Origin: a virus
DNA length: 62,068 bases
Strand: one strand, 5' to 3'
Virus record (IMG/VR): IMGVR_UViG_3300025073_000026
The notes beneath the pieces are model-generated. The model did not search any database. It saw nothing but the letters and a program-made list of their open reading frames with translations, and was not told the origin of the DNA. Of the stretch, positions 2 to 43,369 are shown piece by piece. Every line of letters starts with the position of its first letter. The stretch's first letter is position 1. The position numbers and the translations under genes were made by a program.

Positions 2-382
2 GGGGGGGGGGGGACGGTTGTGAGTAATACTCTAGAGTGGTCTACAGGCGGGCTGAATGTGGATGGATGCAGGGTAATGACAACTAATCGATTGTGCAAC
101 ACCCCTAGACGTGCGGCATCCGCTCCTATTGGTACTTTCGTTAGGAGTAACCCAAGTTCACCTACAGACACATCTAATGGCAGGTGGCCAGCCAATGTGG
201 TTCTTAGCAATGTGTCAGGATATTTCCCTAAAACTGTGAGTATGGGACATCTACCACGAACAGGGAAGACAGCATCTTGTTTTGGTCCGAATAGACACGC
301 TTGTGGGGATGCCAACAACGGCTATAACGACTCTGGCTCCGCGTCTCGTTTCTTCAAATCCTTTCCACAAGTGGATGACTGA
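2..382 (+). CDS. MTase-insert cassette A1 (5'-truncated by window edge, starts in a G13 tract)
   Basis: Frame open from position 2: GGGG-TVVSNTLEWSTGGLNVDGCR...GRWPANVVL...DSGSASRFFK; same three motifs as the other cassettes. Confidence 0.8.
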   Translation, partial: GGGGTVVSNTLEWSTGGLNVDGCRVMTTNRLCNTPRRAASAPIGTFVRSNPSSPTDTSNGRWPANVVLSNVSGYFPKTVSMGHLPRTGKTASCFGPNRHACGDANNGYNDSGSASRFFKSFPQVDD

Positions 383-1053
383 TGCGTCTTATTTCCCTAG
401 CTAGGCGCCCTTTGTCTGAGGGGAGCGTCACGGGCAATGTGGCCCGATGGGGGTGTGGCGGGTTTGATATTGACAGCAATCGGATAAGTTGCGCTGAAGG
501 GCACAGTCCAGCGGCTGATAGAAGAAACACTGCAAGGAAGTCCGGGAATTTCAGTATCTCTGGACGTAAGGCGGCTGAGTCGGTTTCCATCGGGAGATTA
601 GACTACAGGGGATCCTTTGAAACCAGAGCCGCTTTCCGGCCATCTGAACTCTTAGGGCGCTGGCCTGCCAACTTACTTCTTCAGCATGATCTAACCTGTC
701 AAAACCGTGGCATTAAGATTGTCAAAGGAAGCCCCTCTTCGTCCATTCTGCACAATGCTTATGAAGGAACATCCACTACAGGCTTCATTCGAGGTGTTTC
801 ACACTCTGGCAATCAACACGGGGATTCCACCGGAAAAGAGGCCGTGGCCGTTTGGAACTGCGATAAAATGTGCCCTATTTCGGTTCTTGATAGTCAAAGT
901 GGAGTATCCTTCTCAGGGGGGGTTCGGGTCCAGCCAGCAAGGGTTGGAAGAGCAATGGAGATACAGTCAGTGGGTCTTGTAGGAGTACAGGTGGTTTCAA
1001 AGACATTGGAACGGCTTCCCGTTTTTTCAAGCAAGTGCAGGAGACGGATATGA
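382..1053 (+). CDS. MTase-insert cassette A2, frameshifted at G7 (916-922)
   Basis: MRLISLARRP...GRWPANLLLQH..C...WNCDKMCP. The conserved end TASRFFKQVQE lies in another frame after G7, and that frame is the frame of the downstream ORF. Confidence 0.8.
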   Translation: MRLISLARRPLSEGSVTGNVARWGCGGFDIDSNRISCAEGHSPAADRRNTARKSGNFSISGRKAAESVSIGRLDYRGSFETRAAFRPSELLGRWPANLLLQHDLTCQNRGIKIVKGSPSSSILHNAYEGTSTTGFIRGVSHSGNQHGDSTGKEAVAVWNCDKMCPISVLDSQSGVSFSGGVRVQPARVGRAMEIQSVGLVGVQVVSKTLERLPVFSSKCRRRI

Positions 1054-2696
1054 CCACAGCAAACAAGAAGATGCCAAAGGAGATGCTGGAGTATCTTCAC
1101 ACCATGATCATCCCTGATGGGGGTGAGTGTCTCATCCTTTTCAATGGTGAACTGGAGATTACAGACTTTGCGGCTCTCCCCGAAAACCATTATCACGGTA
1201 TCATTGCCCAAGGAACCCCCACACCGGAACAGTCAGAATTGATGCTCAGGTGCTTACGTCCGGGTGGGCATTGCTTGTTGGTCGCCCCGGACATTCAGCC
1301 TACAGGTCATACGGGGGTCTGTAATCTTGAGGATGCTGGCTTTGAAATCCGGGATTCTATCTGCTGGTTGAGACCACCTGTTGATCCTGAGAACCCCAAA
1401 TTCAAGTATTGCGCCAAGGCATCAACGTCTGAGCGCAATGCAGGTATCCATGACCTCCCCACCGGGCAAAAGACCAAGTGCAAATGGACCGGAAAGGATG
1501 TGGAAGAGATACAGGATGTCTACGAGGCATTGCTAGGCGAATTGGACGGAGATGAGAAGGAAACCTTAGCAATGCTTAAAGGTGGGATCAGTAGGGACCA
1601 GATCCCCGATGAACTCATTGACAAGTTTGAGGAGTTCACGGAGTTTGAAGTGCTTGAACGCTGTACCCACCCTTGCTTGCATCCGGATGCCCGGGTAAGA
1701 ACTGAGACGGGATGGCGTCCTATCAAGGAGATCAAAGTTGGGGACAAAGTCCTGTCAGAGGATGGTCAGTACCATTTAGTGACTCACGTATCACAGCATC
1801 CCTACACCAGCCCAAACCTTTTTGAGATACATGTGTTGGGGGTACTAGAGCCTACATTGGCGTCCGACAATCATCCGTTCCTTGTATTACGAGTAGCAGC
1901 AGGTGGTTGGGGAACGAAAGAAGTCTGGGTGCAAGCTTCGGATTTGAGAGAGGGCGATGAAATCCTTTCACTAGAACAAACTGATAACCCACTAGCAATG
2001 TCTCTACTTCATCACAGAGAGAATGGACAAACGCTCATTTGCAACAAGGTCCAAAAAGTCACTCTAGTCCCGTATGTGGGTGATGTGTGGAACCTTTCAG
2101 TAGATGGCTCGCCCACATTCCAAACCATTGTTGGAATGTCTCACAACACGGTCAAACCTATTGAGATAGACGAATTTCTCCTTCAAGGCATCCCTACGGA
2201 TCAGGGTCCGATCCTCGACCCGTTTATCGGGTCTGGGACTACCGGGATAGCATGTTTGAAGACGGGGCATGACTTCATCGGCATTGAGAAGGATGACACC
2301 TACGCACGAATAGCAGATGCTAGATTGAGGCATTGGAACCGTGAGATAGGTAAGTGGAATCCGGCTACGTTAGTATCGGATGTTGTGCCTATCGAGAAGC
2401 CGCAGGATACCCTTGGAATTGACTTCCTTGAGGGGCCGGAAGAGCCTGTGGTCAGAGGGGTATGCACGGCAAAGGTAGAGTCTGTCCCAGAATTGACCAT
2501 CGAATCCGCTAAGATGATGGGAAAGGCTCTGGCGGGATTGGCCCAAATTGTTCTGGACGCTACTGGAGGAGTGGCATCCAAACCATTGGCCCCCCTTAGT
2601 CTGGAGGCCCTCTTTGGTCTTGACGATGAGGGTAAACCGACTACTGTAAAGGAACCTGAGGCTCCTATGAGCCTGGATGACCTGTTGGATAAGTGA
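1050..2696 (+). CDS. N4/N6 DNA methyltransferase-like 'body' protein with mini-intein; lacks DPPY and the ARKP..RFF segment
   Basis: LRCLRPGGH, EDAGFEIRD, YCAKAS, HP|TVKP, DPFIGSGTTG, FIGIE motifs; AGGAG upstream of ATG 1050. Confidence 0.8.
   Translation: MTTANKKMPKEMLEYLHTMIIPDGGECLILFNGELEITDFAALPENHYHGIIAQGTPTPEQSELMLRCLRPGGHCLLVAPDIQPTGHTGVCNLEDAGFEIRDSICWLRPPVDPENPKFKYCAKASTSERNAGIHDLPTGQKTKCKWTGKDVEEIQDVYEALLGELDGDEKETLAMLKGGISRDQIPDELIDKFEEFTEFEVLERCTHPCLHPDARVRTETGWRPIKEIKVGDKVLSEDGQYHLVTHVSQHPYTSPNLFEIHVLGVLEPTLASDNHPFLVLRVAAGGWGTKEVWVQASDLREGDEILSLEQTDNPLAMSLLHHRENGQTLICNKVQKVTLVPYVGDVWNLSVDGSPTFQTIVGMSHNTVKPIEIDEFLLQGIPTDQGPILDPFIGSGTTGIACLKTGHDFIGIEKDDTYARIADARLRHWNREIGKWNPATLVSDVVPIEKPQDTLGIDFLEGPEEPVVRGVCTAKVESVPELTIESAKMMGKALAGLAQIVLDATGGVASKPLAPLSLEALFGLDDEGKPTTVKEPEAPMSLDDLLDK
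1674..2147 (+). mobile_element. Mini-intein (158 aa) in the MTase-like gene
   Basis: Starts CLHPD, has ASDNHPF block B, ends VWNLSV...SHN followed by T; excision restores HPTVKP. Confidence 0.9.
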
Positions 2697-5266: not shown

Positions 5267-5630
5267 TGACTTTTGGGGGGTCCTAGCGCCACTTCGAGGA
5301 ACCTCTTGGGGTGACCAGATACTAGTGGTATCAGGACATATGCTTTCCGATGCCTTACATGGCTGGACAAAGCCCCTAGTTGAATTTCTGGGCCGTCCAC
5401 CGCACATAAGGGCGGGGAAGGTATCGGATGCTGAGAGTAAATGCGTCCTGGCGTCAGCCAGCACTTGTGCAATGGCATCCCCGAAATGCCGTCCGTGCAG
5501 GGATGTACCTGATTGCTATGAGGCACCTGGCAAGACACCTGAATTTCGGGAAGCGGCTACTCGTGTCGCTATGGCCTGGAAAGAGGGTAGATACGTGATC
5601 GTAATCGAAGGTGGGGAATTCTCCCTCTAA
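5184..5630 (+). CDS. hypothetical Cys-rich protein
   Basis: ORF between CHC2 gene and polymerase. Confidence 0.6.
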   Translation: MENYLVKSIISGTIWGAVPILRAIPKGDDFWGVLAPLRGTSWGDQILVVSGHMLSDALHGWTKPLVEFLGRPPHIRAGKVSDAESKCVLASASTCAMASPKCRPCRDVPDCYEAPGKTPEFREAATRVAMAWKEGRYVIVIEGGEFSL

Positions 5631-5650
5631 GGGCACCACGGGAGACGCCG

Positions 5651-8600
5651 ATGGATCTTGCAGACATTCTGGACAGCAGTAATCAGCACGCTCCTATAGA
5701 GAAACTTCCATGGATGAAGAAGAAAAACTTCATCCTCGTGGATTGGACCAAGCCAGATGGACTCGCTATCCTCAAGCAAGCCATGGATGCATGTATTGCA
5801 TCCAAGCTGTACGCTTTGGACATTGAATGCACAGGCCTGGATAATCGTGTCTTCAATGGGAAGACAGTCAAAGACATTGTAGGCATCTGTCTTTCTCCTG
5901 ATGGGGTCACGGGCTACTACATCCCGCTCAGGCATATCCAGAGAATCGAGTCCACTGGGGCAACAAACCTATTGCCTTGCAATGTCCCGCTTCCTGAGTT
6001 TGAGACGGAATTCGTTCGACTCCTGGATAGTCCTGCAGTAGCCATCTTTCACAACGGAAAGTTTGACCAAGAGTTCCTCACCTTCAATGGGCGAGATAGG
6101 CCGTGGGGCGACTGGGATCTACCTGGGAAATGGGAAGACACCCTCATCCTGGCCTATCTGGAGAATTCCAGGGCAAGACGCTTTGGGCTGAAACCTTTGG
6201 CCGATACGATCCTTGGCCAGAAGATGATTGAGTTGAAGGATCTCTTCCCATTAAAGTACAAAGGTCCCCTGGATTTCTCTCTGCTCAATCCGTCCGATGA
6301 TGATGCAGTCGTTTGGTATGGTGCCTCCGATGCGGTGTGTACCTACCAGCTGTACGAGCATTTCCTACCATTGGTGGTGACCTGTGAGGATTCCCAAAGC
6401 ACTATCTACAAGATCGAGAAGTCTTGTGTGGGGGCTACTCGATGGATGGAAAGGAATCGAGTCTATGTTGATAAAGCCAAAGTTGCAGAACTCATACAGA
6501 TTGGACAGAAAGAATGCTTTGAGTCCATGCAAGAGGTCTACCGTTTAGCCTCTGAGATCATCGGTAGGGACATTACCCCACTGCATTTCTACCTCGTTGA
6601 ACGGGAATTCCAGAAGACCAACCCCACCTTCAGTATCGACAAGGGTGGGAATATGGCCTTGATCGAGGCACTAAAGGATGCCCGTGCGGAGTGCAACAAC
6701 AAGGTACGAATTGCGACGGACTCCTTCTTGTACGAGAAGTCCCGACGATTGCCCATCACCAAGAAAAAGAAGGATGGTGGGGAAAGGACATATCCAGCTG
6801 AGTACGATATCATGTCGCCTCAGCAGTTCGGGCTGATGCTGGAAGAACTGGAAGTTCCAGGTTTAGCTTACACAGAGAAATCTGGGCAAGTACAGACATC
6901 TGCTGATGTATTGGATGAAATTCTGACCAAGGCAGCTGGTAAACTCCCTTGGGTCGCTAAAGTCATTCGTTTCAGGGAAACACAAAAGGCACTCTCGACT
7001 TTTCTACTACCGCTGTGGAATGATACGTGCCCTGTAGACGATACGGTGCGAATTGGTTTCAATGGACTCAAAACAGACACGGGAAGATTCTCTACGTCCA
7101 AACCGAAGAACCCAACCGAAGATGGCGGCACTTCTTACTTCATGCAGGGGACTCCTGCCACGTATGACCCCAATCGACCCGCCTGTATGACTCGCATCAG
7201 AGAATGTTTCACCCCACGGAAGAAGGATAGCTTCATTGTCGCGATCGACTTTAGTGGCGAAGAACTTCGAATTGTAACCAACCTGAGTCGTGAACCAAAG
7301 TGGCTCTCGGAATTCTTTCACTGTGCTGGTTGCAACCGGATGTTCGATCGGGATGTTCCACCCCCCAGATATTGCCCCGATTGTGGCTCTGACAAGATTG
7401 GCGACCTGCACACTTTGACTGCGTTGGGTATCTATGGGGCAGATGCACAGAAGAGAGACGATTGGAAGGCATTGAGAGGATACGGGAAGTGTCTTCACTT
7501 GGATACACTCATAGTCAGGGATGGTGTTCTGCAAACTCTCGGGACACTACCAACAGGGCCGGAAGATACTTTCATGCCTCTCCTAGGGGTGGTCCGGGGG
7601 GAGACAGGACCAGTCCCCTTAGTGGAGGTCTACAATGGGGGCTTGCAAGACCTCTTCTACATCGTGACTAATCGTGGGATTGTAGCCTGCACTGAGAGAC
7701 ATACGTTCAAGGTGGGTGATGGAACCCTTCAATCGCTGGCAGGGGATCTTGATGTCGCATGGGTAATACAGACAGCTGGCATCCCAACCCTTATAGATGC
7801 CCCCTACCAACGGATCAGTGCGCATGAAATGGCTGCGTTCCATGACCCAGACCATGAAACTAGTTACCTTGCAGGCGCCTATCAAGGAGACGCTAATGGT
7901 GGTGCTCTAGATCGAGTAGAAATGCCAATGGCTGGTCTCATCGGCGTCTTACCATTCCTCCGAGGCAATAAATCACGAGTCCCAGCCTTCGTTCTTTCAG
8001 CTGGTAGAGAAGCAATGCTTCACTACATGGCAGGGCTTTGGGATATCATGGGGGAAGTATCAGACACTGATGGGGTGGGTAGGTGGGCAACTTTTGATAT
8101 TGGGTTTGCGTCCCAAGTAGCAACAGTAGCCTCTGCACTAGGTATGGAACCGTGGGTAGAAGTCGAGTGGGAGACTACTCTCACACGACTGAAATTCCGG
8201 GTAACGTTGCCAGCCGATACGATGTGGCAAATTGGACCATATATGAGGTACCCAGTTAATGCGGCTCGACTACAGGATTCACGGGAAAGGCACCCCAGAG
8301 GCCCCAACAGAATTCTAGGCATATATCCGGCTGGCAAACATCCTTGTCTGGACCTTCATGTTGATGACCCATCCCATCTATACTGGGCCAATGGGCTCGT
8401 CTCCCATAACAGTACGAACTTCGCCCTCTGTTACGGCGGTGGGGGCCATGCGGTATGTGCGGCAACAGGTGTGGACGAGAATGAAGGGTGGAGAATCAAA
8501 CGGACGTTCGATGCTACATACAAAGGGCTCCAGGATTGGTGGAAGCGTACACAGGACTTTGGTCGTAAGACAGGGTACGTAAAGACTGCTTTTGGTAGGC

Positions 8601-9508
8601 ACTATCCTGTCCCAGATATCCAGCTCCCGAAATTTGGTAAGGACGCAAAAGGTGCCCCCCGGAATAATATGGCCTTCATTGCTAAAGCCGAACGCAATGC
8701 AGTTAATGGCCCCGTACAATCATCTGGAGCAGATATTGTTAAGCTAGCTATGACGATGATCCATCGACACTGCAAAAAGAAGGGGTGGCTGGACAAGGCA
8801 CGCATGATCATCACCATGCACGATGAATTGGTTTTCGACATGGATGCAGATATTATGGAGGATGCCATTCAAGACTTCACCCACCTTATGACCAACAACC
8901 CTCTAATCGGAAAGTTAGGTTGGCCCATCCCCCTGTTAGTTGATGTAGATGTGGGGCATGACTGGACTGTACCTTGGAGCCTCACTGAGATCGCCCATAC
9001 AGGGAAATGGCCTGAAGAGTTGAAGCCCTGGTTCCCAAAGATGGTGGCAGCTCAGGAGCCCAAAGTTCTTACCATAGAACCCCCGTCCAAAGAATTGCCG
9101 CCACAGGGGGGAGACCTACCCCCCCAAGAGGGACTACCCGTTGCCCCTGAATCCACCCCCATTTCCGTTGTTGTCCAAGACGTGCCCTCTGATAAGGGAT
9201 TGGGTTTCGAACTAAGTGACAAGATCGACGAGACATCCAAACCCGTCCCGGAAAAGAAGTCGTCTAGTACTTCGGGCAAGAAGAAGGGGGCATTCAAATT
9301 TGTGATCAAACAGCCCTTAACTTTAGGGACCCTTGAGCGACTAGCTTACGTTATTGCCCGGACACATAATAAGGGCAACCACATACTTCAACTAGAAACT
9401 CCTTCCGGGGATGTGTTATCATGGACAGACGGGCTACCGGATGACCTGAAAGATGTCCGGGTCAATCCACAGCTTTTCGAACTCCTAGCAAAGGAAGTGG
9501 GTCTATGA
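5651..9508 (+). CDS. polA: DNA polymerase family A with 3'-5' exonuclease, intein-containing
   Basis: ExoI DIECTG, FHNGKFD, TGRFS, motif A DFSGEELR, motif B R...K|STNFALCYG, NGPVQSSGAD, motif C MHDEL. Confidence 0.95.
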   Translation: MDLADILDSSNQHAPIEKLPWMKKKNFILVDWTKPDGLAILKQAMDACIASKLYALDIECTGLDNRVFNGKTVKDIVGICLSPDGVTGYYIPLRHIQRIESTGATNLLPCNVPLPEFETEFVRLLDSPAVAIFHNGKFDQEFLTFNGRDRPWGDWDLPGKWEDTLILAYLENSRARRFGLKPLADTILGQKMIELKDLFPLKYKGPLDFSLLNPSDDDAVVWYGASDAVCTYQLYEHFLPLVVTCEDSQSTIYKIEKSCVGATRWMERNRVYVDKAKVAELIQIGQKECFESMQEVYRLASEIIGRDITPLHFYLVEREFQKTNPTFSIDKGGNMALIEALKDARAECNNKVRIATDSFLYEKSRRLPITKKKKDGGERTYPAEYDIMSPQQFGLMLEELEVPGLAYTEKSGQVQTSADVLDEILTKAAGKLPWVAKVIRFRETQKALSTFLLPLWNDTCPVDDTVRIGFNGLKTDTGRFSTSKPKNPTEDGGTSYFMQGTPATYDPNRPACMTRIRECFTPRKKDSFIVAIDFSGEELRIVTNLSREPKWLSEFFHCAGCNRMFDRDVPPPRYCPDCGSDKIGDLHTLTALGIYGADAQKRDDWKALRGYGKCLHLDTLIVRDGVLQTLGTLPTGPEDTFMPLLGVVRGETGPVPLVEVYNGGLQDLFYIVTNRGIVACTERHTFKVGDGTLQSLAGDLDVAWVIQTAGIPTLIDAPYQRISAHEMAAFHDPDHETSYLAGAYQGDANGGALDRVEMPMAGLIGVLPFLRGNKSRVPAFVLSAGREAMLHYMAGLWDIMGEVSDTDGVGRWATFDIGFASQVATVASALGMEPWVEVEWETTLTRLKFRVTLPADTMWQIGPYMRYPVNAARLQDSRERHPRGPNRILGIYPAGKHPCLDLHVDDPSHLYWANGLVSHNSTNFALCYGGGGHAVCAATGVDENEGWRIKRTFDATYKGLQDWWKRTQDFGRKTGYVKTAFGRHYPVPDIQLPKFGKDAKGAPRNNMAFIAKAERNAVNGPVQSSGADIVKLAMTMIHRHCKKKGWLDKARMIITMHDELVFDMDADIMEDAIQDFTHLMTNNPLIGKLGWPIPLLVDVDVGHDWTVPWSLTEIAHTGKWPEELKPWFPKMVAAQEPKVLTIEPPSKELPPQGGDLPPQEGLPVAPESTPISVVVQDVPSDKGLGFELSDKIDETSKPVPEKKSSSTSGKKKGAFKFVIKQPLTLGTLERLAYVIARTHNKGNHILQLETPSGDVLSWTDGLPDDLKDVRVNPQLFELLAKEVGL
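7490..8410 (+). mobile_element. Intein (307 aa) in polymerase motif B with degenerate LAGLIDADG endonuclease
   Basis: CLHLDT...CTERHTF...YMAGLWD...LDLHV...GLVSHN followed by S. Confidence 0.9.
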
Positions 9509-10146
9509 AACGTGCAAATCCGAAACAAGATCTGTTAGCCACATGCAACGATAGGGGAACACCCCCAGCAGAATTCAAGGGATTTTTCTGTTCCCGATGC
9601 AGGAATCCAAGTTGTATCAATGCAGGTTGGGGAGAGTCACTTTGGACTAACAGGATGTCTACTCAAGAGGATAGGTTGTTCAACCCCACTTTTGCAGACA
9701 CCAATGACCCCAGATTCGAGCGATTCAAGGATATGGACTTTCCGTCTATGTTCCACGAAGCCATGCGCCTGGAGATTGCAGACCAGAGGAATGATTGGGA
9801 AATTCCTGAGATACCGATTCTAGATGGGGTCAGCAAGGTTTCTGAACCGGAAACTACTGCCACAGTAGAAGCTGCTGTCCAGGCTATGGCAGGGTCGCAG
9901 GGGAAGCCTAAAACACCTATTGTTGCTCCAGTGCCACCTCCTAGTAGTCCCCCTGTGATGGTCGAAGCCGTCACCCCTGGAACAGTCCAGATAAATACAG
10001 ATGCCCCCACAGGTGGGATAATGTTGGATGGTAGTGATGTTCAACCCAGAAAGGCTGAGCCCAAAACGGATCCGTGGGAAGTACCCAAGGAGACGAAAGT
10101 TGCTGTGGGGGCTACCGTGAAGATCGGGGGACCAAAATCCAAATGA
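9505..10146 (+). CDS. hypothetical protein
   Basis: ATGA-coupled to polA; CxxCxxxxC motif. Confidence 0.7.
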   Translation: MKRANPKQDLLATCNDRGTPPAEFKGFFCSRCRNPSCINAGWGESLWTNRMSTQEDRLFNPTFADTNDPRFERFKDMDFPSMFHEAMRLEIADQRNDWEIPEIPILDGVSKVSEPETTATVEAAVQAMAGSQGKPKTPIVAPVPPPSSPPVMVEAVTPGTVQINTDAPTGGIMLDGSDVQPRKAEPKTDPWEVPKETKVAVGATVKIGGPKSK

Positions 10147-11180: not shown

Positions 11181-11563
11181 AAACTTGGACGCTTAGGATC
11201 ACTGGGGGGCAAATATTTCAGATGCAACTGCAAGATCACCCCACTTTGCAACACAATGGGGCTGAGACCCTCTGGCAAGCGACTATGGACATGCAACGAG
11301 TCCGAGAGATCGCAGAATCCATTCATGTGAACAGCGGGGCAACGGTTTCTGTTTATGCTACCAATGTTGAAGACACACCCAAGGTACCTAAAATGAATGG
11401 GTGGCCAACTGAACGATGCCCGATCTGTTACTTCTTTGAGATGGACACGTCAAACCACTGTGGGGTGGCAGACTGGCCGGTACCAGTCCTCAAGAGTGCT
11501 ATGCAACGTGGTGGTGACAAAGCCATACAGGACCGCCAAGAATGCCCCAGGAACAAACGATAG
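11177..11563 (+). CDS. hypothetical protein
   Basis: ATGA-coupled ORF. Confidence 0.6.
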   Translation: MKTWTLRITGGQIFQMQLQDHPTLQHNGAETLWQATMDMQRVREIAESIHVNSGATVSVYATNVEDTPKVPKMNGWPTERCPICYFFEMDTSNHCGVADWPVPVLKSAMQRGGDKAIQDRQECPRNKR

Positions 11564-12324
11564 AGTACAACTCTGGCACAATGTATCAATCGGATGCTAT
11601 CGAAGCTCTACGGACGCTTCCTGATAGGTCAGTCGATTTAATCCTAACGGATCCGCCCTACTCTTCCTTAGAGAAGTGGCGGGCCATAGGAACGACGACT
11701 CGCCTGAAAGTGTCTGATGCTTCATCTAATGAATGGTTTCCAGTAGTTGAGAACAGTTACTTCGTGGATTTCTTCAAAGAATGCTACCGAATTCTCAGGA
11801 ATAATTCTCACATCTATGTTTTCTGTGACTTTGAGACTGCTCTAGCGATTGACCCCATGGTGACCGGCGCCGGGTTCACTCGAAAGAAGCCTGTCATCTG
11901 GAACAAGGTGGGCACCCTGGTGGAAGAATGCTGCCCCAATTGCAAACGTCCAGTGGGTGCTAGACGGAAACCTGGGTCTCCAGGCATGGGATATCCCTAC
12001 AGGTCATGCTATGAATTGATATATTTCGGTTCCAAAGGGGACCGTCCAGTAACTGGATCAAGGAACGTCCGGGATGTGTTGGAGTGCGAGCGAATAAAGG
12101 GGGACGGGGCTTACCCTACAGAGAAACCCATCGAACTACTCCAAGTTCTTTTAGGTCAGTCCTCAGTGCCAGATAGTCTGATCGTGGACCCCTTTGCTGG
12201 GAGTGGGTCAACAATCCTGGCCGCTACAGGACTCGGCAGACGGGCTTTCGGTTTTGACATACAACAAGCCACAGTGGATCGTTTCAACAATCGGCCCATC
12301 GATGTGATCAATCTTTCTGCCTAA
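11542..12324 (+). CDS. N6/N4 DNA methyltransferase (beta class)
   Basis: TDPPY, YPTEKP, DPFAGSG. Confidence 0.92.
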   Translation: MPQEQTIEYNSGTMYQSDAIEALRTLPDRSVDLILTDPPYSSLEKWRAIGTTTRLKVSDASSNEWFPVVENSYFVDFFKECYRILRNNSHIYVFCDFETALAIDPMVTGAGFTRKKPVIWNKVGTLVEECCPNCKRPVGARRKPGSPGMGYPYRSCYELIYFGSKGDRPVTGSRNVRDVLECERIKGDGAYPTEKPIELLQVLLGQSSVPDSLIVDPFAGSGSTILAATGLGRRAFGFDIQQATVDRFNNRPIDVINLSA

Positions 12325-15856: not shown

Positions 15857-16228
15857 CTACCTCGTTTTCACTGAATAAAGGATCGCTACCTGCTCCTTGG
15901 GAGTCAGTTTGGAGAGGGCATTCTCCAGATTCTGAGTCCACCGCATGACCACTCCAAGAGGTATCCGATAATCGGAGTTTCCCCTGATGATGTCTGGAGT
16001 AATGTCCTTCGGACACTTTCCGGAACCCACGTACAGCAAAGGGGCAATGTTATCGTGCAACCAAGTCCACCCGGCGACTACTCCCACATGGAAGGGTTCG
16101 TCTTCGTTGGACTTGCTGATCACCTTTGCACCTGAGAAGCTGGAGATGAAATGGCGTTGTTTGGAGGACGTACTTTCTGGGAGAATGGGGGTTATCGGCA
16201 ATGAAATCCGACTCTGCAACGGTCCCAT
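15857..16228 (-). CDS. hypothetical protein
   Basis: ORF in minus block, overlaps tnpB end. Confidence 0.5.
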   Translation of the reverse strand: MGPLQSRISLPITPILPESTSSKQRHFISSFSGAKVISKSNEDEPFHVGVVAGWTWLHDNIAPLLYVGSGKCPKDITPDIIRGNSDYRIPLGVVMRWTQNLENALSKLTPKEQVAILYSVKTR

Positions 16229-17376
16229 TCTATTGGGATCTTTGCCAACCGTACCCCACGGTTGAGTACCTCATTTGCTGAATTCACATCCCTATGGACC
16301 ACATACCCGCACGCACAACGATGCTCGCGCTCATGCAGTTTCTTGGGAACATCAGCCCCACACTTTGCACATACCTGAGACGTCCCCCTAGGATTGACGG
16401 GCACCGTCCATTTACCAGCCTCTTCCGCTTTGTAAATGACCATGCTGGTCAACATCCCCCAAGACGCATCCCCAATGTTCCTGTGTATGCCCTTTGCCTT
16501 CCCCGTTGGGGACGGCAACTGCATCAACCCTTTAATGTTCAAATCCTCAAAGCAAATGTAGTCAAACCTCTCCACGATGTCCTTAGAGACAACGTGGAGA
16601 AATTCCCTACGTTGATTAGCCACTCGTTCATGCAATTTGTTGAGTGCTGCCTTAGCTTTGGCCCTACGTCTAGATCGCTTGTTGGTCTTCAGGGAGAGCC
16701 GATGCTGCGCTTCTTTGAGCCTAGCAAGGCTGTCCCTTAACCATCTGGGATTCCCGACTATTGTACCATCATCAAAGGTAAGGAGGGTTTCGAGTCCGAA
16801 ATCCATCCCTACGGGATGTTTTGCGACAGGAACTTTGGCAGGTGCTTCACCTATGTCAGAGGTAATGGCGACGAACCATTTTCTACCTGTCCGTTTGATG
16901 GAGAAACCTATGGGTTGCCCATGAAAGGGACGATGGAAGTTGACTTTGATACTGACTTTACCGATTTTGATGATGGATTTGTCAGTATCGATGCTCCAGC
17001 CCGTACCGGGCGGGGCGGCGATGCTGAAGGAATCATACCGGTTAGCACTCTTGAACCTTGGATACCCAGGCTCTTCGACATTCTTTTTGACTCTACGGAA
17101 GAAGCCTTTGAATGCCCGGTCCAACCGGACGAGGCAGTCAACGGCGATACGACGTGGGAGTTCGGCAAATTCGGGGTGTTCAGAACGAATTTGAGTCAAG
17201 GAGATCTGTTGATCATTACAGGAGATCGAAATACGTTTGCGTTTCCAGTGAGTACGTCGCTCTTCCAGAGCGGCGTTGTACAGGGAACGGCAGAGGTTGA
17301 GGGTGTGGTTGAGCCAGCGGAAGGATTGGTCATTGGGTTTGAGTTGGTATTTGAAGGTTCGGATGAGCCTTTTCAT
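16192..17376 (-). CDS. tnpB: TnpB-family RNA-guided endonuclease (IS200/IS605-type), no TnpA
   Basis: N-terminal TFKYQLKP..CRSLYN; RuvC GMDFG, FEDL, HRDVNSA; CAKC/CACG zinc ribbon. Confidence 0.92.
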   Translation of the reverse strand: MKRLIRTFKYQLKPNDQSFRWLNHTLNLCRSLYNAALEERRTHWKRKRISISCNDQQISLTQIRSEHPEFAELPRRIAVDCLVRLDRAFKGFFRRVKKNVEEPGYPRFKSANRYDSFSIAAPPGTGWSIDTDKSIIKIGKVSIKVNFHRPFHGQPIGFSIKRTGRKWFVAITSDIGEAPAKVPVAKHPVGMDFGLETLLTFDDGTIVGNPRWLRDSLARLKEAQHRLSLKTNKRSRRRAKAKAALNKLHERVANQRREFLHVVSKDIVERFDYICFEDLNIKGLMQLPSPTGKAKGIHRNIGDASWGMLTSMVIYKAEEAGKWTVPVNPRGTSQVCAKCGADVPKKLHEREHRCACGYVVHRDVNSANEVLNRGVRLAKIPIEWDRCRVGFHCR

Positions 17377-17383
17377 GGGGCGG

Positions 17384-17412
17384 ATCGTAACATTCAATTG
17401 GAAAAAGGTCAA
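17384..17412 (-). promoter_or_regulatory. sigma70-like promoter of tnpB (TTGACC-N17-TACGAT, extended TG)
   Basis: Near-consensus with 17-bp spacer; predicted start at or near the ATG (leaderless). Confidence 0.5.
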
Positions 17413-18023: not shown

Positions 18024-18377
18024 ATGGCTAACTTAGTGCCGTCTTACCACGAGAAGGTTTTTGTTGCCGTGCCGGGATTCAAGCACCCCCACTACCGGGT
18101 GTGGTTCACTTCCCGTAAGGCCTTCCAGGACTACACTGCCGGTCGCCCGGGGATAGTTCTGCCCGGTACGACTTTGCAGGGATTCGTCCGGGTCATGAAA
18201 AGCCCAACTGGCTGTTCTCCCAAGTGGTTCCTCTTTGATACTGAAAATGGAACGCTTAATGGTCGTAGGTACCTGTGGGAGTTTGGAACCCGGCGAGAAG
18301 CACGGGAGCACAAGAAATTGCAGAATAGCGATCCGAATAATGTGAAGTTGGTTGGGCCCTTCCAGTACATCGGGTGA
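18024..18377 (+). CDS. hypothetical protein
   Basis: RBS, after promoter. Confidence 0.65.
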   Translation: MANLVPSYHEKVFVAVPGFKHPHYRVWFTSRKAFQDYTAGRPGIVLPGTTLQGFVRVMKSPTGCSPKWFLFDTENGTLNGRRYLWEFGTRREAREHKKLQNSDPNNVKLVGPFQYIG

Positions 18378-18384
18378 TGCAGAA

Positions 18385-19056
18385 GTGACTAGAACCCAAG
18401 GTGGCATTTCAACAACGAACCTAGTGCTATCCGCCCACGTTGGTGGCAATGCAGATGTGTTCCCCAACATCCTGCAACTTCATGTGCCGGATGGGGCTAC
18501 TATAGCCGATGTAACCTATGGTAAAGGAGTGTTCTGGCGGAACGTCAATAGGCTCAGATACAAGTTGCTGGCAACGGACATCCAGTCAGGAGTCGATTGC
18601 AGGCACCTTCCCTACAAGGATGCCACCATTGATGCCGTGGTCATAGACCCGCCCTATATGGAAGGGAGTGCCCGGAATACCGCTTACCAGACAGGGCAGC
18701 AGGCGTTCTCTGAGTACTATGGGCTACAGGCGATACAGCAAACCGGGGACAGGTACTCAGGAGCGATCCTACAGCTTTACAAGGATGCCTGTAAAGAGGC
18801 TGACCGGGTGCTGAGATCATCCGGTGTCCTTATCCTAAAGTGTCAGGACGAGGTGTGCGCTAATAAGCAACGATTGACCCATGTAGATATCATCAACCAC
18901 ATGACCGACCTTGGGTGGTTCTGCAAAGACCTATTCGTGGTTGTGCGGAGTAATAGACCTGTAGTGAGCCGGATGAAGAAACAGGTGCATGCCCGCAAAA
19001 ACCACAGTTACTTTCTGGTATTCACTCGACGGAAGTTCCATAGAACAGAGGATTGA
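18385..19056 (+). CDS. DNA amino-methyltransferase (short)
   Basis: DVTYGKGVFW SAM-binding-like motif, IDPPY. Confidence 0.85.
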   Translation: MTRTQGGISTTNLVLSAHVGGNADVFPNILQLHVPDGATIADVTYGKGVFWRNVNRLRYKLLATDIQSGVDCRHLPYKDATIDAVVIDPPYMEGSARNTAYQTGQQAFSEYYGLQAIQQTGDRYSGAILQLYKDACKEADRVLRSSGVLILKCQDEVCANKQRLTHVDIINHMTDLGWFCKDLFVVVRSNRPVVSRMKKQVHARKNHSYFLVFTRRKFHRTED

Positions 19057-19574: not shown

Positions 19575-20789
19575 GTGCAGGGTATTGCTATGCACAAGGG
19601 GGCATACGCTTTGTTCTCTTTACCTTTCAAGACAACTATATACGTTGGGGATGCTCTCCAACGGCTAAAGGCACTACCTGATAACTCCGTCCATTGCTGT
19701 GTGACTAGCCCGCCCTATTGGGGATTGCGGTCGTATTTACCGGAGGGGCATCCTGACAAGGGGCTGGAGCAGGGGCTGGAGGAATCCCCGGATGCCTATG
19801 TGGAAAGAATGGTAGGAGTATTCCGAGAAGTACACCGGGTACTGAGAAAAAACGGAACCTGTTGGCTCAATATCGGGGATAGTTATGCCAGTGCTTGGGC
19901 TTGTAATCGTCGCAACATGATTGGCAATGGATCACTTGATGACGGTAAGCGAGATTCACGTCCAAACAGATTGGTGGGGGATTTGAAGGAAAAGGATCTC
20001 GTAGGAATCCCATGGATGTTAGCCTTTGCTCTTCGTAAAGATGGATGGTGCTTACGTCAAGACATCATCTGGTCCAAAAGAAATTGCATGCCAGAATCAG
20101 TTTCTGATCGCTGCACCAAAGCACATGAGTTGATCTTCCTACTGGCAAAGTCGGTAAAGTATTTCTACGATGCCGAAGCCATCAAGGAAGCAGCCAGTGA
20201 TGAGAGCCACGGTGCCCTAGAGGGTGGGTGTGGAGTAAAAGCACAAACTACAGGGAACCATAGTGGCCCGTTAGGACTTGTGCCCTCTAATGGGAAACGT
20301 AATGCCCGTTCCGTCTGGGATATCCCGACTTCTCCCTTCTCCGGGGCACATTTTGCTACGATGCCCGTTCAACTGGCTACCCGTTGTATCAAGGCTGGAA
20401 CATCTGAGAAAGGGTGCTGCTCAGTCTGTGGCTCCCCTTGGACACGTATCCTTGACAAAGAACCCGGCCGATGTGACCGGCCTAATCATCCCTATGACCC
20501 CAATCGACCAGATGGAATGTCCCTAAGAGGCGGGAGATTATCACCAGGAAAAGTGCTATCTACAGAATGGGTGCCTACTTGTAAATGTACCTCTGATAGT
20601 ATCCCTATCCCCTGCACTGTCCTAGATCCTTTCTTTGGAGCAGGGACCACTGGTCTTGCTGCTATGCAGCTTGGCCGGTCTGCAATAGGCATCGAGTTGA
20701 ACCAAGACTATGCCGAGATCGCCTGCAAACGATTGACTGATAACTTTGGAGTCATTGGCGATGATAGCCTCGTGGAGGTAGCCCATTGA
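19575..20789 (+). CDS. N4/N6 DNA methyltransferase (SPPY)
   Basis: TSPPY, HFATMP, CCSVC..CKC insert, DPFFGAGTTG. Confidence 0.93.
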   Translation: MQGIAMHKGAYALFSLPFKTTIYVGDALQRLKALPDNSVHCCVTSPPYWGLRSYLPEGHPDKGLEQGLEESPDAYVERMVGVFREVHRVLRKNGTCWLNIGDSYASAWACNRRNMIGNGSLDDGKRDSRPNRLVGDLKEKDLVGIPWMLAFALRKDGWCLRQDIIWSKRNCMPESVSDRCTKAHELIFLLAKSVKYFYDAEAIKEAASDESHGALEGGCGVKAQTTGNHSGPLGLVPSNGKRNARSVWDIPTSPFSGAHFATMPVQLATRCIKAGTSEKGCCSVCGSPWTRILDKEPGRCDRPNHPYDPNRPDGMSLRGGRLSPGKVLSTEWVPTCKCTSDSIPIPCTVLDPFFGAGTTGLAAMQLGRSAIGIELNQDYAEIACKRLTDNFGVIGDDSLVEVAH

Positions 20790-22006
20790 TCAGCATACCG
20801 AACAAAGTGATGATCCATACAGGCAACTGCCTATCCGTGTTGAAGTCCCTACCGGCAGAATCAATCCACTGTGTTGTCACTTCACCTCCGTACTTTGGCC
20901 TCCGCAACTATGGCAACCCCGATCAAATAGGGCTTGAATCATCCCCACAGGAATATGTGGCCCATCTTGTAGAGGTCTTCCGACAGATCAAACGAGTCTT
21001 GCGCCCAGACGGGACTGTATGGCTCAATATTGGAGATAGCTATGCAACCCAACCTGGTAAAGGTTCCAATGTGCCTCAGACCAAATGGCAGGCTAACTCC
21101 TACCCGGATAGTGCACCACATCGTTCCATTTCAATGCCCGGACTCAAACCCAAGGACTTGATCGGTATCCCGTGGAGACTCGCTCTAGCCCTCCAGGAAG
21201 ATGGGTGGTGGTTGCGATCGGAGATCATATGGGAGAAGTTCAACGGCCTTCCTGAATCAGTAACAGATAGAGTAACTCGCTCTCACGAGCACGTTTTCAT
21301 GCTGACCAAATCATCCAAGTATTTCTACGATGCAACTGCTATCCTGGAAGAGCCCCAAAGTGGGCCTTCCGACGTCAAAAAGATGTTAGAAAAGAAAGAA
21401 CGGATAGGAGGTAAGCACAAAACCCTGGTGGACTCACTATCCAAGGCATCCGCAACAACCAATGTGGGGACTCATCGAGGTGTGGGTGACCCATTCTTCA
21501 GGAACAAACGATCAGTGTGGACGATAGGACTGCAACCCTTCCATGGGGGCCATTTTGCCGTCATGCCATCTAAATTGGCCGAACCCTGTATTCTGGCTGG
21601 GACTTCCGAGAAGGGTTGCTGCCCAACCTGTGGTGCTCCTTGGGTACGACTAGTCAAGAAATGGGAGGCTCCATCTGAGAAGGAATACCATCCGGTCAAT
21701 ACAGAGATGGATTGGCTATCTCAGGATGATGACCTGACCGGACCAGTTTTGCATACCGAGCAAACTATTGCTGATCGTACTCTTGGGTGGGAACCTACCT
21801 GTAAATGCTCGGACAATACGTCCCCTACCCCCTGCACTGTCCTAGACCCATTTTTTGGAGTAGGAACTACAGCTCTCGTCTCTATGCTCCATGGCCGTTC
21901 TTGTGTGGGGATAGAATTGAACCCCGAATATGTGAAGATGGCTGTGAAGCGACTGGAGGATGAATTTGGGGTAATAGGGATGAATGCAGTTGAGGTAGCA
22001 GGATGA
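20786..22006 (+). CDS. N4/N6 DNA methyltransferase (SPPY)
   Basis: TSPPY, HFAVMP, CCPTC..CKC insert, DPFFGVGTT. Confidence 0.93.
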   Translation: MISIPNKVMIHTGNCLSVLKSLPAESIHCVVTSPPYFGLRNYGNPDQIGLESSPQEYVAHLVEVFRQIKRVLRPDGTVWLNIGDSYATQPGKGSNVPQTKWQANSYPDSAPHRSISMPGLKPKDLIGIPWRLALALQEDGWWLRSEIIWEKFNGLPESVTDRVTRSHEHVFMLTKSSKYFYDATAILEEPQSGPSDVKKMLEKKERIGGKHKTLVDSLSKASATTNVGTHRGVGDPFFRNKRSVWTIGLQPFHGGHFAVMPSKLAEPCILAGTSEKGCCPTCGAPWVRLVKKWEAPSEKEYHPVNTEMDWLSQDDDLTGPVLHTEQTIADRTLGWEPTCKCSDNTSPTPCTVLDPFFGVGTTALVSMLHGRSCVGIELNPEYVKMAVKRLEDEFGVIGMNAVEVAG

Positions 22007-22200: not shown

Positions 22201-22558
22201 TATGCTGGTCTGGGATACCGACAGTGATGCTAAGAGTATCTTTGATGTGCTGGACCCTACGGTGCAAGGGAAATTGGAAAGGGATATCTCCGGATGCCCG
22301 GTCTGCCATGCAGACTTGACCACTCCCATTAGTGGGGATTTCCTCTACTTTCCGAATAGGATCACGTTCGGGAGACTTTTGAGTTGTGGCTGTGACGTCA
22401 AGGTGAGGGTACGTATGATGCTCAAGCCCTGTCCTCAGCCGGAGAGACCACTACGGGAGAACAGTGATACTTGGTTTGAGCAAGACTGTTATGGAAATGC
22501 TTTGAGATATTGGCGGGCACATTACGGGGTCCAGACATACGAGTTGATCGACTCATGA
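22178..22558 (+). CDS. hypothetical protein
   Basis: Stop overlaps first cassette start. Confidence 0.55.
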   Translation: MSQMRASDMLVWDTDSDAKSIFDVLDPTVQGKLERDISGCPVCHADLTTPISGDFLYFPNRITFGRLLSCGCDVKVRVRMMLKPCPQPERPLRENSDTWFEQDCYGNALRYWRAHYGVQTYELIDS

Positions 22559-22917
22559 CATTGCTGATCTCCATAGCTAGGAAACCCTTGAGTGAGGCCA
22601 CAGTAGCCCGTAACGTCCTCAATACAGGGGGGGGGGCATTGAACATAGATAGGTGTAGGCACCAAAGGCAGGATACCTATTGTTACCCAAATGGCCCCGG
22701 AGGTAAAGCCTATGGGTTTGGTACTCTGAGATCAATTATGGTACGTCCAAATCCCACGGGATCTAACTCCATGGGGGCGTGGCCGACCAATGTTGTTCTA
22801 GGTGGTACCATTAGCACCTTATTCCCTGATGCCCTATTCCGTAAAGCAAGTGTTTCTAATGATGTGAATCTGGCGAACCGCTCGGCGGCAAGGTACTTCA
22901 AACAGGTCCAGGAATGA
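22555..22917 (+). CDS. MTase-insert cassette B1 (short class; G10 in frame)
   Basis: MTLLISIARKP...GGGALNIDRCR...GAWPTNVVL...SAARYFKQ. Confidence 0.85.
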   Translation: MTLLISIARKPLSEATVARNVLNTGGGALNIDRCRHQRQDTYCYPNGPGGKAYGFGTLRSIMVRPNPTGSNSMGAWPTNVVLGGTISTLFPDALFRKASVSNDVNLANRSAARYFKQVQE

Positions 22918-23553
22918 ACCTTCTGATCTCCATAGCTAGGAAACCTGTATCTGAAAGCAGCATCACCCGTAATGTGGCGGCATACGAAAGCGGCGGGCTT
23001 AATGTAGACGCCGCAAGACTGTTTTGCGGTACAGAGCATATGCGTGGGATTGTCAAAGGAATGACAGATGGGGGCATGACTGCAGCAGACGGAAGAACAG
23101 GAAAATCCCTTGGCAGATTTGAACCCGGCAAGGTATTCCAAGCCACGGATTCTCCCCTCGGTCGTTGGCCCGCTAACGCGCTCTTAGAGCATAGACCCGA
23201 TTGCAAGGAAACAGGTACTATGAAGGTAACCCGGAAGGAATGGTCTCGGTTCGCTGGTTCTTCCGGACCCGATAAGGTGTACGGGGGGGGGGGGGGTGGC
23301 GGCAGACAGACAGACAGACAGACAGTCAGTGGAAGAGCATCGGGCTATCTGGCAATGTGCTGAAGGTTGCCCTGTGAAAGAAATGGACAGGCAAAGCGGT
23401 ACTCTACATTCGAATGGCAACATTGAGTTGACTACATCTTCTAACAAAGATGTGATCTACACAGGAGGGTGGCTTCCCCGGACTCGGATTATCAGAACCT
23501 TTGATAATGGGGGTGGTGCCTCCAGGTTCTTCAAACAGGTGCAGCAAGAATGA
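22914..23553 (+). pseudogene. MTase-insert cassette B2, frameshifted at G14 + (CAGA)5
   Basis: N-half in frame 22914..; C-half (WQCAEGCP...GGASRFFKQ) in the +1 frame ending 23553. Confidence 0.8.
23283..23330 (+). repeat. Simple sequence repeats G14 and (CAGA)5(CAGT)2
   Basis: Read directly: G 23283-23296; CAGA x5 23303-23322. Confidence 0.95.
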
Positions 23554-23992
23554 CGTTATTGATAGCTATAGCTAGGAAGCCTTTGGGTGAAGGTCACACA
23601 GTAGCACTTAACGTCCTTAGTACAGGGGGGGGGCGTTGAATATAGATAGGTGTAGAGTTGGTGCTGAGTGTACCACGACGAGGCATTCCTCCTCCTCCTC
23701 CTTTTTCAGTGGGAAGATAGGCGAAATCCAACCCATCGTTGAGAAATACTCAACGGGCAGTGATTTGGGCAGATGGCCAGCCAACCTACTTCTTGTGATA
23801 GATCGCCAGATAACGAAGTCGTTCCCGAGAGTGCACGGGGCAGGTTCCTCTAGGGCTGCGTGGTGTCATGGTAAATCTGACACCAGTGTATATGGAAGAT
23901 ATGGTGGGGATGACGTGGGGGGCCATAGGTTTGGTGACTCTGGCTCTTCATTTCGCTTCTTTAAATCCTTTTCGTCTAAGGACGCTGAATGA
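23550..23992 (+). pseudogene. MTase-insert cassette B3, frameshifted at G9 (23625-23633)
   Basis: MTLLIAIARKP...LSTGGG then stop; one extra G restores ALNIDRCR...GRWPAN...RFFK. Confidence 0.85.
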
Positions 23993-24462
23993 CCCTACTG
24001 ATAGCCATAGCTAGGAAACCAATCACAGGAAGAACGATAACAGAGAACGTCCTTAAGTGGAGAGGGGGCGGGATAAATGTAGATGCCAGTCGGGTGGCAA
24101 CAACCCAAGGGGATCGCCAACAAATGCTAGAAATGTCCCGCGGATTCGTTGGAAGGAGATTTGGTAAGCCAGAGTCAATGAACTATGGTTATGAAGGAAG
24201 CATGCCAGTTAAAACTTTGAGCGAACCTTCTCCACTCGGTAGGTGGCCAGCCAACATCGTACTTGAAAAAGACGTGAGCGTGATTGATGGCTTTCCCGTG
24301 ACGTCTAGCGGAAATTTGCTTACGACTCATTTCCTCAAAGCTTCTGAGAACACATCAATGTCTGGCCCAAATCAGGGACGCAACCCCCGTCAAAATTGGG
24401 GTGGCAATATTGGCTCTGCTGCTAGACTGTTCCAGCAGTTCCCATTTGAGGATGTGGAATGA
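23989..24462 (+). CDS. MTase-insert cassette B4
   Basis: MTLLIAIARKP...GRWPAN...SAARLFQ. Confidence 0.85.
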   Translation: MTLLIAIARKPITGRTITENVLKWRGGGINVDASRVATTQGDRQQMLEMSRGFVGRRFGKPESMNYGYEGSMPVKTLSEPSPLGRWPANIVLEKDVSVIDGFPVTSSGNLLTTHFLKASENTSMSGPNQGRNPRQNWGGNIGSAARLFQQFPFEDVE

Positions 24463-25091
24463 CCCTCCTGATAGCCATAGCTAGGAAACCCATAGTTGGG
24501 GCTGTGGTGCTGAATGCCATCAAGCATGGCTGTGGTGGGATCAGTGTAGATGGGTGCAGGATTGATTCAGACGGCACACATGAAAGTGCTGCCAGAGCCG
24601 GACATGGCAAAGGCTACGAGAATACCCCCAACAAGGGGACTTTCGGTGCTGGTCTAGGGGGTCGGATATCTGCACCCCATTTCGACGGTAGATGGCCCGC
24701 TAATGTGCTTCTACAGCATAATGTTGATTGTAGACAGAATGGCATAGTCACGATAGGGCATGGAGAGCGCCATAAAGCCAAACCCGGACAAAAACCATTT
24801 ACGGATGCTCGCGGCTGGAATGAACACGAGATGACACGAGACGGGGCACACGCTCCTGATAACTATGGGGTAGAAAGCATTCCCAATTGGTGTTGCTCAG
24901 ACAGTTGCCCAATCCCAATCTTAGATCGATCCGAAACTCACGAAGCAGGCAATCGTGGCAAAATGACTAATCATGTGACCCCTAACCGGATATACTGTGG
25001 ATCCTGGACCCCAATGGGGAATAACCCGAAGTACCATGAGGACAGAGACCCATCAAAACCATCACGATTCTTTAAGCAGGTAAGAGAGTGA
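24459..25091 (+). CDS. MTase-insert cassette B5 (long class, H..C/WxCxxxCP)
   Basis: MTLLIAIARKP...GRWPAN...PSRFFKQ. Confidence 0.85.
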   Translation: MTLLIAIARKPIVGAVVLNAIKHGCGGISVDGCRIDSDGTHESAARAGHGKGYENTPNKGTFGAGLGGRISAPHFDGRWPANVLLQHNVDCRQNGIVTIGHGERHKAKPGQKPFTDARGWNEHEMTRDGAHAPDNYGVESIPNWCCSDSCPIPILDRSETHEAGNRGKMTNHVTPNRIYCGSWTPMGNNPKYHEDRDPSKPSRFFKQVRE

Positions 25092-25708
25092 CTCTCTTGA
25101 TAGCCATAGCCCGCAAACCTACAGTGGAACCCAACATTGTGGCTAATGCCCTAGAGTGGGGGACAAGTGGGATCAATGTAGATGGATGCAGGATCAGGGG
25201 CCATGTCTCCGATGTCCCCAAAAAGCGTGGAACAAACACCTTCGGTCTGTTAAATGACGACGGGTGGGTTCCGCATCCATCCGATTTTTACCCCCATGCA
25301 TCAGGACGATGGCCAGCCAATTTGCTCCTGCAGCATCTTCCTACCTGTACCCACATCGGGACAACAGAGGAACCCGGATATGTTATCAACCGATGGAAAG
25401 ATGGCTCTAAGCCCTTCGGCGGGGGTGCGGGACACCCTTATGAGGGATCCCAAACCAAAGCCAGTTCAACGGATGTTTGGGAGTGCCAACATGGGTGCCC
25501 GGTAGGAACCCTGGATGAACAGGTTGGCCCACTGACAAGTGGCTCCGGCTGCTTCATGCGGAAGTCCAGTAAAGATGGATGGGGTAACCGGAGTGCTGCC
25601 TACGGAAAAGAAAGCAGGCCCGCAGGGGCAGAGCAGATTTCCTATGGAGATACAGGATATGCCTCACGGTTTTTCAAGCAATTCAAAGCCGATAATGGAG
25701 TAGAGTAA
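25088..25708 (+). CDS. MTase-insert cassette B6 (long class)
   Basis: MTLLIAIARKP...GRWPAN...WECQHGCP...ASRFFKQ. Confidence 0.85.
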   Translation: MTLLIAIARKPTVEPNIVANALEWGTSGINVDGCRIRGHVSDVPKKRGTNTFGLLNDDGWVPHPSDFYPHASGRWPANLLLQHLPTCTHIGTTEEPGYVINRWKDGSKPFGGGAGHPYEGSQTKASSTDVWECQHGCPVGTLDEQVGPLTSGSGCFMRKSSKDGWGNRSAAYGKESRPAGAEQISYGDTGYASRFFKQFKADNGVE

Positions 25709-42089: not shown

Positions 42090-42092
42090 GGT

Positions 42093-43343: not shown

Positions 43344-43369
43344 TACACCGACCCCCGCATACACCTTTG

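Follow-up and report, generated by a model that had tools for sequence, protein, structure and literature searches.

A putative split beta-class methyltransferase with exchangeable cassettes in large phages

The virus record IMGVR_UViG_3300025073_000026 (IMG/VR; 62,068 nucleotides, hereafter the window) comes from a large phage of groundwater metagenomes, with contigs of up to 110-140 kb. The window carries two arrays of short tandem genes (cassettes, or subunit B), the first of which runs off the start of the window and ends at a longer gene (the body, or subunit C). Overlapping assemblies carry this first array upstream past window position 1, in the order cassette C1.0, a minus-strand gene, a half-gene that spans DPPY to the end of motif VIII (subunit A), cassettes C1.1-C1.3 and the body. 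In total, the phage has at least ten cassettes, a lower bound because the genome is incomplete, and six of them sit 20 kb from the body. We propose, with a probability of about 0.62, that these genes encode a split, pseudo-dimeric beta-class methyltransferase with interchangeable specificity subunits.

A first-pass annotation of the window had described the second array as six overlapping open reading frames (ORFs) and had placed two further cassettes at the window start (Table 1). All six starts and their ATGA or GTGA overlaps were recovered, but only four of the six are intact ORFs, C2.2 and C2.3 being frameshifted; both cassettes at the window start are present, C1.3 with a frameshift at a G7 tract. 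The three fixed anchors and two size classes reported there were found again, and the cassettes contain neither DPPY nor FxGxG, as had been noted. The putative zinc motif of the long class (HxxxC...WxCxxxCP) also held, with the H and first C invariant and the W, C and C kept in at least 90% of 58 homologues. When scored against a profile built without window sequences, the window cassettes gave E values of 2e-12 to 2e-41 (Z=1e9), indicating that they are not chance ORFs. Four cassettes matched the DNA methyltransferase family phrog_3008, and no match to the cassettes was returned by Pfam, NCBIfam, PADLOC or Protein Data Bank (PDB) sequence searches. The best named matches of a cassette model in BFVD were phage DNA methylases. 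The low-confidence cassette model (predicted local distance difference test, pLDDT, 65) matched no solved fold at Z>=2, which is not evidence of a new fold.

The termini of the free cassettes are well preserved. The start codon at the anchor is kept by 74 of 79, the 4-nt overlap is present in 67 of 79, and all 79 terminate 3-13 residues past RFFx. A lack of purifying selection at the anchors, named in the first-pass annotation as a sign against its proposal, was not seen: the ratio of nonsynonymous to synonymous differences (pN/pS) at the anchors was 0.32 within the window phage, where silent sites are near saturation. Related cassette pairs from other genomes gave whole-cassette substitution rate ratios (dN/dS) of 0.10-0.52. 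Judged from these sequences, the cassettes are real protein genes under purifying selection. Cassettes L041:10594-11145, P0060, P0061, P0104 and P0136 have an extended C-terminus with a CxxC...H/C pattern and a final VLCDG motif.

The reference set for homology consisted of 132 canonical single-chain relatives with the ARKP and GRWPAN motifs. Subunit A covered canonical positions 1-181 (E 1e-82) and the cassette covered positions 172-302 (HH E 1e-36), between motif VIII and motif X, which bears out the earlier claim that the cassettes correspond to the internal region of ARKP/GRWPAN beta-class N4/N6 methyltransferases. The strand ending in ARKP is present in both A and the cassette. Motif IV was found in A only: B lacks it, and none of the 58 bodies has a DPPY-like motif. 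DPPY is invariant in 39 intact A genes and present in the A of the window phage, a separate gene at L008:8958-10026 (~1730-660 nt upstream of window position 1). Conversely, the S-adenosylmethionine (SAM)-binding motif I, FxGxG, was found in C only, where it is kept in all 58 bodies with its D, F and G invariant. The order motif IV, target-recognition domain (TRD), motif I, which an ordinary beta-class enzyme has in a single chain, is thus kept only across three genes. In this order B supplies the last core strand and the segment in which beta-class enzymes have their TRD.

ORF 1050-2696 had been taken for the enzyme body. It does have the SAM motif, but it lacks motif IV and would need the third gene, A, for catalysis, so that the body plus a cassette alone should be inactive. 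In alignment with full-length enzymes, the cassettes fitted the internal region, but the body proved to be more than the remaining half, with an extra dead domain. At its N-terminus the body repeats the motif X helix (probability 88, E 3e-6 against the canonical profile); this first helix did not match the SAM half of the body itself (probability 0.5). Its middle is an eroded copy of the catalytic half (probability 93 to A), the ARKP strand and the insert are missing, and the C-terminal part is a live half with motif X and motif I. A tandem duplication with later erosion and fission would give this segment order, and we infer that the system arose in this way from a canonical gene. In an AlphaFold2 model of the body (pLDDT 84, predicted template modelling score 0.65), residues 1-102 aligned to class I methyltransferase domains (PrmA: Z 6.3, root-mean-square deviation 2.6, 88 aligned) and residues 97-229 matched CcrM, M.RsrI and M.BceJIV (Z 5.4-5.8); with such middling Z values, the model does no more than support the sequence result.

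Natural fusions join the same parts: B to C, with one to three cassettes fused to the body, and A-B-C in a single chain (L105:9101-10795). The RFFKQ tail of C1.3 lies in the frame of ORF 1050-2696, which identifies C1.3 as part of an interrupted cassette-body fusion, and intact fusions of this kind are present in relatives. In an unrooted tree (127 columns), a single branch divided split A from the canonical enzymes (support 100/100), consistent with a single origin of split A. The body of the window phage also contains a mini-intein, and inteins with or without an internal endonuclease occur at the identical motif X site in the L024 and L038 bodies. Several A genes also have inteins, and long A ORFs (480-640 aa) may carry inserts.

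Table 1. Cassettes, body and intein in the window
Feature	Position	Strand	Remarks
Cassette C1.2, short class, 140 aa	1..382	+	5′ end ~40 nt upstream of position 1; G-run at 1-13, which in three other assemblies is G12 and in frame
Cassette C1.3, long class	382..1053	+	Frameshift at G7 (916-922) in all 5 assemblies; C-terminal anchor in frame with the body
Body, subunit C	1050..2696	+	Degenerate methyltransferase-like domain without DPPY/FxGxG (~1068-1400), followed by the YCAKA segment, motif X and a live SAM motif I (DPFxGSG at 2217)
Mini-intein, 158 aa	1674..2147	+	Within motif X of the body
Cassette C2.1, short class, 120 aa	22555..22917	+	G10 at 22627-36 in frame; G11 and G12 in two other assemblies, out of frame
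Cassette C2.2, long class, 212 aa when intact	22914..23553	+	Frameshift at G14 (23283-96) beside (CAGA)5 (23303-22); intact in assembly L005
Cassette C2.3, short class	23550..23992	+	Frameshift at G9 (23625-33) in all 8 assemblies
Cassette C2.4, short class, 157 aa	23989..24462	+	Intact
Cassette C2.5, long class, putative Zn site, 210 aa	24459..25091	+	Intact
Cassette C2.6, long class, putative Zn site, 206 aa	25088..25708	+	Intact

Searches with the dead domain found 77 non-redundant body loci, on contigs of up to 552 kb, and the 48 loci with at least 10 kb were used to count A, B and fusions. Among these long loci, A was present in 46 and B in 46 (free in 34, fused in 29). A canonical full-length gene was found in none of the 48, a single-chain A-B-C in one, and the B-C fusion was absent from 19. 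Each record had one body, with up to ten B and up to six A; nine virus records had one body each with 1-7 cassette matches. A complete 436-kb genome contained a single body and a single A, with about five cassettes, of which one lay 135 kb away from the body; locus L041 had six A and six B around a single body. In L109, a compact locus that lacks inteins, A lies at 4392-4976, B at 5151-5639 and C at 5639-6397. Cassette arrays, which the first-pass annotation had suggested counting in relatives, thus recur in many phages, a group of very large viruses that are uncultured. The dead domain was not found in any deposited phage record; the 485-kb phage LR745208.1 (L414) has three full-length canonical paralogues in place of the split system.

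The variable loops between the anchors appear to be exchanged. When 442 units were compared, segments of 15-45 residues recurred at 50-85% identity across slots, genomes and canonical enzymes, and 1032 segments fell into 565 clusters. Pairs that share a loop usually have a single slot in common. Matches across slots numbered 264 for first-to-middle, a count that owes much to one large allele family, 60 for last-to-middle and 12 for first-to-last; the middle-loop allele of C2.6, for example, also occurs as a first loop, both in other cassettes and in canonical methyltransferases. In a mosaic cassette of L107, the first loop is that of one neighbour and the last loop that of a second, the crossover lying at GRWPAN. 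The cassette scaffolds, in contrast, group by genome (14 changes versus 43 when shuffled, on few columns). Loops shared across genomes on scaffolds grouped by genome suggest that the arrays grow locally and take their loops from a common pool. The first-pass annotation had proposed a library of interchangeable subunits or donors for one enzyme scaffold: the multiplied, anchor-shuffled cassettes agree with this, but there is no single scaffold, catalysis being split over A and C, and 'subunit' is likelier than 'donor'. From their position and variability we infer that the cassettes set specificity. Among single-chain relatives, P0029-P0037 and P0076 have two to four tandem insert copies and may form a multispecific beta-class group.

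In the window phage and 22 other loci (e.g. L016:9319, L108:12563, L360:2529 and L407:11981), the A gene is interrupted directly after DPPY-X. These 23 genes were chosen by a stop within three codons of DPPY, and in all of them the stop comes right after the putative take-off codon (TGA in 11, TAG in 7 and TAA in 5). An insert of 6-40 nt in any frame follows, ending in a putative landing codon; the first two bases of this codon match the X codon in 20 of 23 genes (19 as scored, plus L399, re-read by hand). The take-off and landing codons change jointly where X is Glu or Leu, and three of the 23 have AGC for GGY. Past the insert the sequence resumes with L/I-x-F-M, and synonymous variation is seen in the L/I-x-F codons that precede the Met. 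Many loci have small hairpins at the take-off site, which are weak and differ in form. No stop or insert at DPPY-X was found in the canonical relatives screened.

Bypass of T4 gene 60 and stop-hopping are defined by a take-off codon, an immediate stop, a gap and a matched landing codon (10.1101/2022.08.31.505936). The interrupted A genes show sequence counterparts of these features, but their gaps are just 6-40 nt and highly variable, the gene is different and no associated mobile endonuclease has been shown. The interruption is a good candidate for a programmed ribosomal hop over the stop, and the interrupted A genes would then add a widespread natural example of short-gap ribosomal bypass. 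Bulge-helix-bulge or group I splicing was judged unlikely, since the inserts can be as short as 6 nt and have no common structure. A methyltransferase from another family (SPPYW type), at L280:6428, is likewise interrupted by a stop that directly follows motif IV, and its downstream part lies in another frame. In L016:9390-10004, an A subunit carries a helix-turn-helix (HTH_3/HTH_31, weak) within a variable loop.

All four G-runs of at least 9 in the 62 kb fall within cassettes, which make up 6.8% of the window (p ~2e-5, or ~3e-4 after allowing for a twofold G-run enrichment in Gly-rich cassettes). Of the eight cassettes in the window, three (C1.3, C2.2 and C2.3) have a frameshift at a G-run. 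Tract length varies among assemblies at three G-runs; the G9 and G7 tracts break the frame in all assemblies. Cassettes of relatives contained no G-run of at least 9 in 80 kb, indicating that phase variation is not a general feature of the system. The longest tract differs between assemblies from a single run, so the length differences may be technical. Lineage-specific phase variation of the cassettes is plausible, at slightly under even odds, the alternative being decay plus assembly noise.

Beta-class enzymes have the order IV-TRD-I and need two protomers; in EcoP15I, one protomer recognises the target and the other methylates it, and beta-class TRDs are often disordered without DNA (PMC7544214). 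In the enzyme proposed here, A, B and C very probably act in trans as a three-part system and, given such a system, B is likely to be the specificity determinant. Subunit A (DPPY to motif VIII) and the SAM half of C would form the catalytic protomer. The first strand of B would complete the dead domain of C, which lacks that strand, to give a recognition protomer, and the pair would reproduce the division of labour of a beta-class dimer. The docking geometry, with A on the SAM half of C and B on the dead domain, could equally well be right or wrong. One body would serve many B and often several A. The two or three Gly-rich loops of each cassette would be exchangeable specificity elements, reshuffled by recombination at the anchors, so that exchange of B would change the DNA target. 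Many methylated sites could thereby help the phage evade varied host restriction systems. More tentatively, a single pseudo-enzyme scaffold might combine with any of several A and any of up to ten B drawn from a global loop pool, its output tuned by G-tract switching and the ribosomal hop.

Several points weigh against this split-enzyme reading. CcrM-like enzymes read their target largely through the catalytic protomer, and A carries variable loops of its own, so that A may set part or all of the specificity. Three of the ten phage cassettes, the fusion and A itself are interrupted, and the predicted cassette structure is of low confidence. DNA as the substrate and the TRD role rest on motif order, since the searches turned up no characterised enzyme in the parent family. 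The locus counts are approximate, being derived from hidden Markov model and regular-expression rules. Alternatively, B might be true subunits or free proteins whose loops do not read DNA, and which instead bind host proteins (e.g. as anti-restriction decoys), direct RNA or protein methylation, or complete the fold while A sets specificity. Such roles would suit loops that are short, Gly-rich and poorly modelled, and an A that is likewise multiplied and variable (six copies in L041); moreover, a shared fold does not reveal the substrate (PMC7544214). We nevertheless consider them unlikely, as identical loop alleles occupy the TRD position of single-chain canonical methyltransferases and B stays translationally coupled or fused to C.

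The B-C fusions, found in 29 of the 48 long loci, could also be the expressed form, with the free cassettes mainly silent donors that recombine into it. Mosaic cassettes and 5′ ends that are more alike at silent sites (synonymous difference, pS, 0.53) than the other anchors (0.79-1.0) fit such traffic, but the preserved starts, overlaps and stops of the free cassettes, the 19 loci without a fusion and the purifying selection on whole cassettes make this explanation improbable. There is, in our view, very little chance that free cassettes act as regulators, reducing methylation by competition with the fused cassette or by occupation of the body. Fused and free B do occur together in many genomes, where free B could out-titrate a single body; an inhibitor, however, would not need diverse, conserved loop alleles, and genomes with a bare body depend on free B. 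That the arrays are decaying fragments of duplicated methyltransferase genes, as the frameshifts in three of eight window cassettes and the interrupted A might imply, is largely refuted by break points that are identical in 77 lineages, by remodelled termini, by dN/dS well below 1 and by the near absence of broken cassettes in relatives.

The split enzyme shares with single-chain beta-class methyltransferases (CcrM, M.RsrI, M.BceJIV and EcoP15I Mod) the beta order of motifs IV to VIII, TRD position, X and I and fold matches, and their obligate two-protomer division of labour was the template for the model. Unlike them, it has three genes, motifs IV and I on separate polypeptides, an extra dead domain and a TRD region that is free-standing and multiplied. 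By sequence, the closest enzymes are those of the phage family with ARKP/GRWPAN, which is uncharacterised and includes Mycobacterium phage Dumbo gene 99. In Type I systems, specificity is set by a separate subunit, HsdS, which can be exchanged and in which conserved anchors enclose variable segments that recombination shuffles. Under the proposed model the cassettes would resemble HsdS in these respects, but HsdM is an intact gamma-class enzyme, whereas A and C match beta-class halves, and the cassettes are phage-encoded, in up to ten coupled genes, with no restriction subunit shown. No HsdS sequence match to the cassettes was found in Pfam, NCBIfam or PADLOC; they align instead to the beta-class insert.

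The multispecific C5 methyltransferases of Bacillus phages (SPR, phi3T and rho11) carry several short modular TRDs in one chain. They too are phage enzymes with short modules, and tandem in-cis inserts also occur in the ARKP/GRWPAN family, but their chemistry is C5 and their modules act in cis, whereas the split system has separate subunits and the catalytic motif DPPY rather than the PC motif of C5 enzymes. M.AquI and M.EcoHK31I are naturally split C5 methyltransferases and likewise assemble one enzyme from separate polypeptides, but from two fixed parts with one specificity. The TRD alleles of Type III mod genes move through recombination between the conserved motifs that flank them, and simple repeats switch the genes on and off (PMC3467074). 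These beta-class genes resemble the present loci in such movement at flanking motifs, and their repeat switching would be matched by the possible phase variation of the cassettes; there, however, a whole TRD moves inside an intact gene, whereas here sub-TRD loops change slots and the putative TRD is its own gene, the architecture being split instead of a single-chain Mod with a large TRD plus Res. METTL3-METTL14 and MTA1-MTA9 pair an active beta-class subunit with a partner whose motif IV is eroded (PMC7544214), but they are eukaryotic, each partner is a whole domain and there is no library of recognition subunits. The system would function like a beta-class methyltransferase with an HsdS-like exchangeable subunit; it belongs with neither Type I, Type III nor C5 systems, and it departs from the single-chain layout of ordinary beta-class enzymes.

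No account of a split three-gene system turned up in the literature searches. If our reading is true, the system would be the first case, among beta-class amino-methyltransferases, of a recognition subunit that is free and exchangeable and of two catalytic motifs divided between genes. Beta-class TRDs are hard to define from sequence (PMC7544214); here evolution appears to have cut out the TRD region and provided hundreds of loop alleles, so the link from loop to methylated motif can be tested by swapping one small gene. The system suggests how large phages could keep up with diverse host restriction systems and may offer a natural platform for programmable methyltransferases. Standard annotation misses it, as the cassettes are called 'hypothetical proteins' and A and C resemble pseudogene halves.

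Elsewhere, the phage encodes DNA polymerase A, primase, DnaB, NAD salvage genes and five other methyltransferase genes. The latter lie at window positions 11542-12324, 18352-19056, 19575-20789, 20786-22006 and 50305-51699, and the second cassette array is directly preceded by two SPPY-type methyltransferase paralogues. The gene neighbourhoods seen contain replication genes; a systematic search for a linked restriction subunit was not made. An SNF2-type helicase lies nearby, with no partnership with the split methyltransferase shown; a LAGLIDADG insert in this upstream gene is present in assembly L009 and not in L008. Relative to window 9256-9960, L009 has ~70 changes, all within the last part of the DNA polymerase gene and the ORF that follows it, reflecting either strain variation or a chimeric assembly. 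On the minus strand, an NAD synthetase gene adjoins a nicotinamide phosphoribosyltransferase gene (41139-43364), a candidate NAD-rebuilding anti-defence pair. An IS605-family OrfB/TnpB-like gene lies at 16192-17412, also on the minus strand, with Pfam matches on the corresponding gene in L001.

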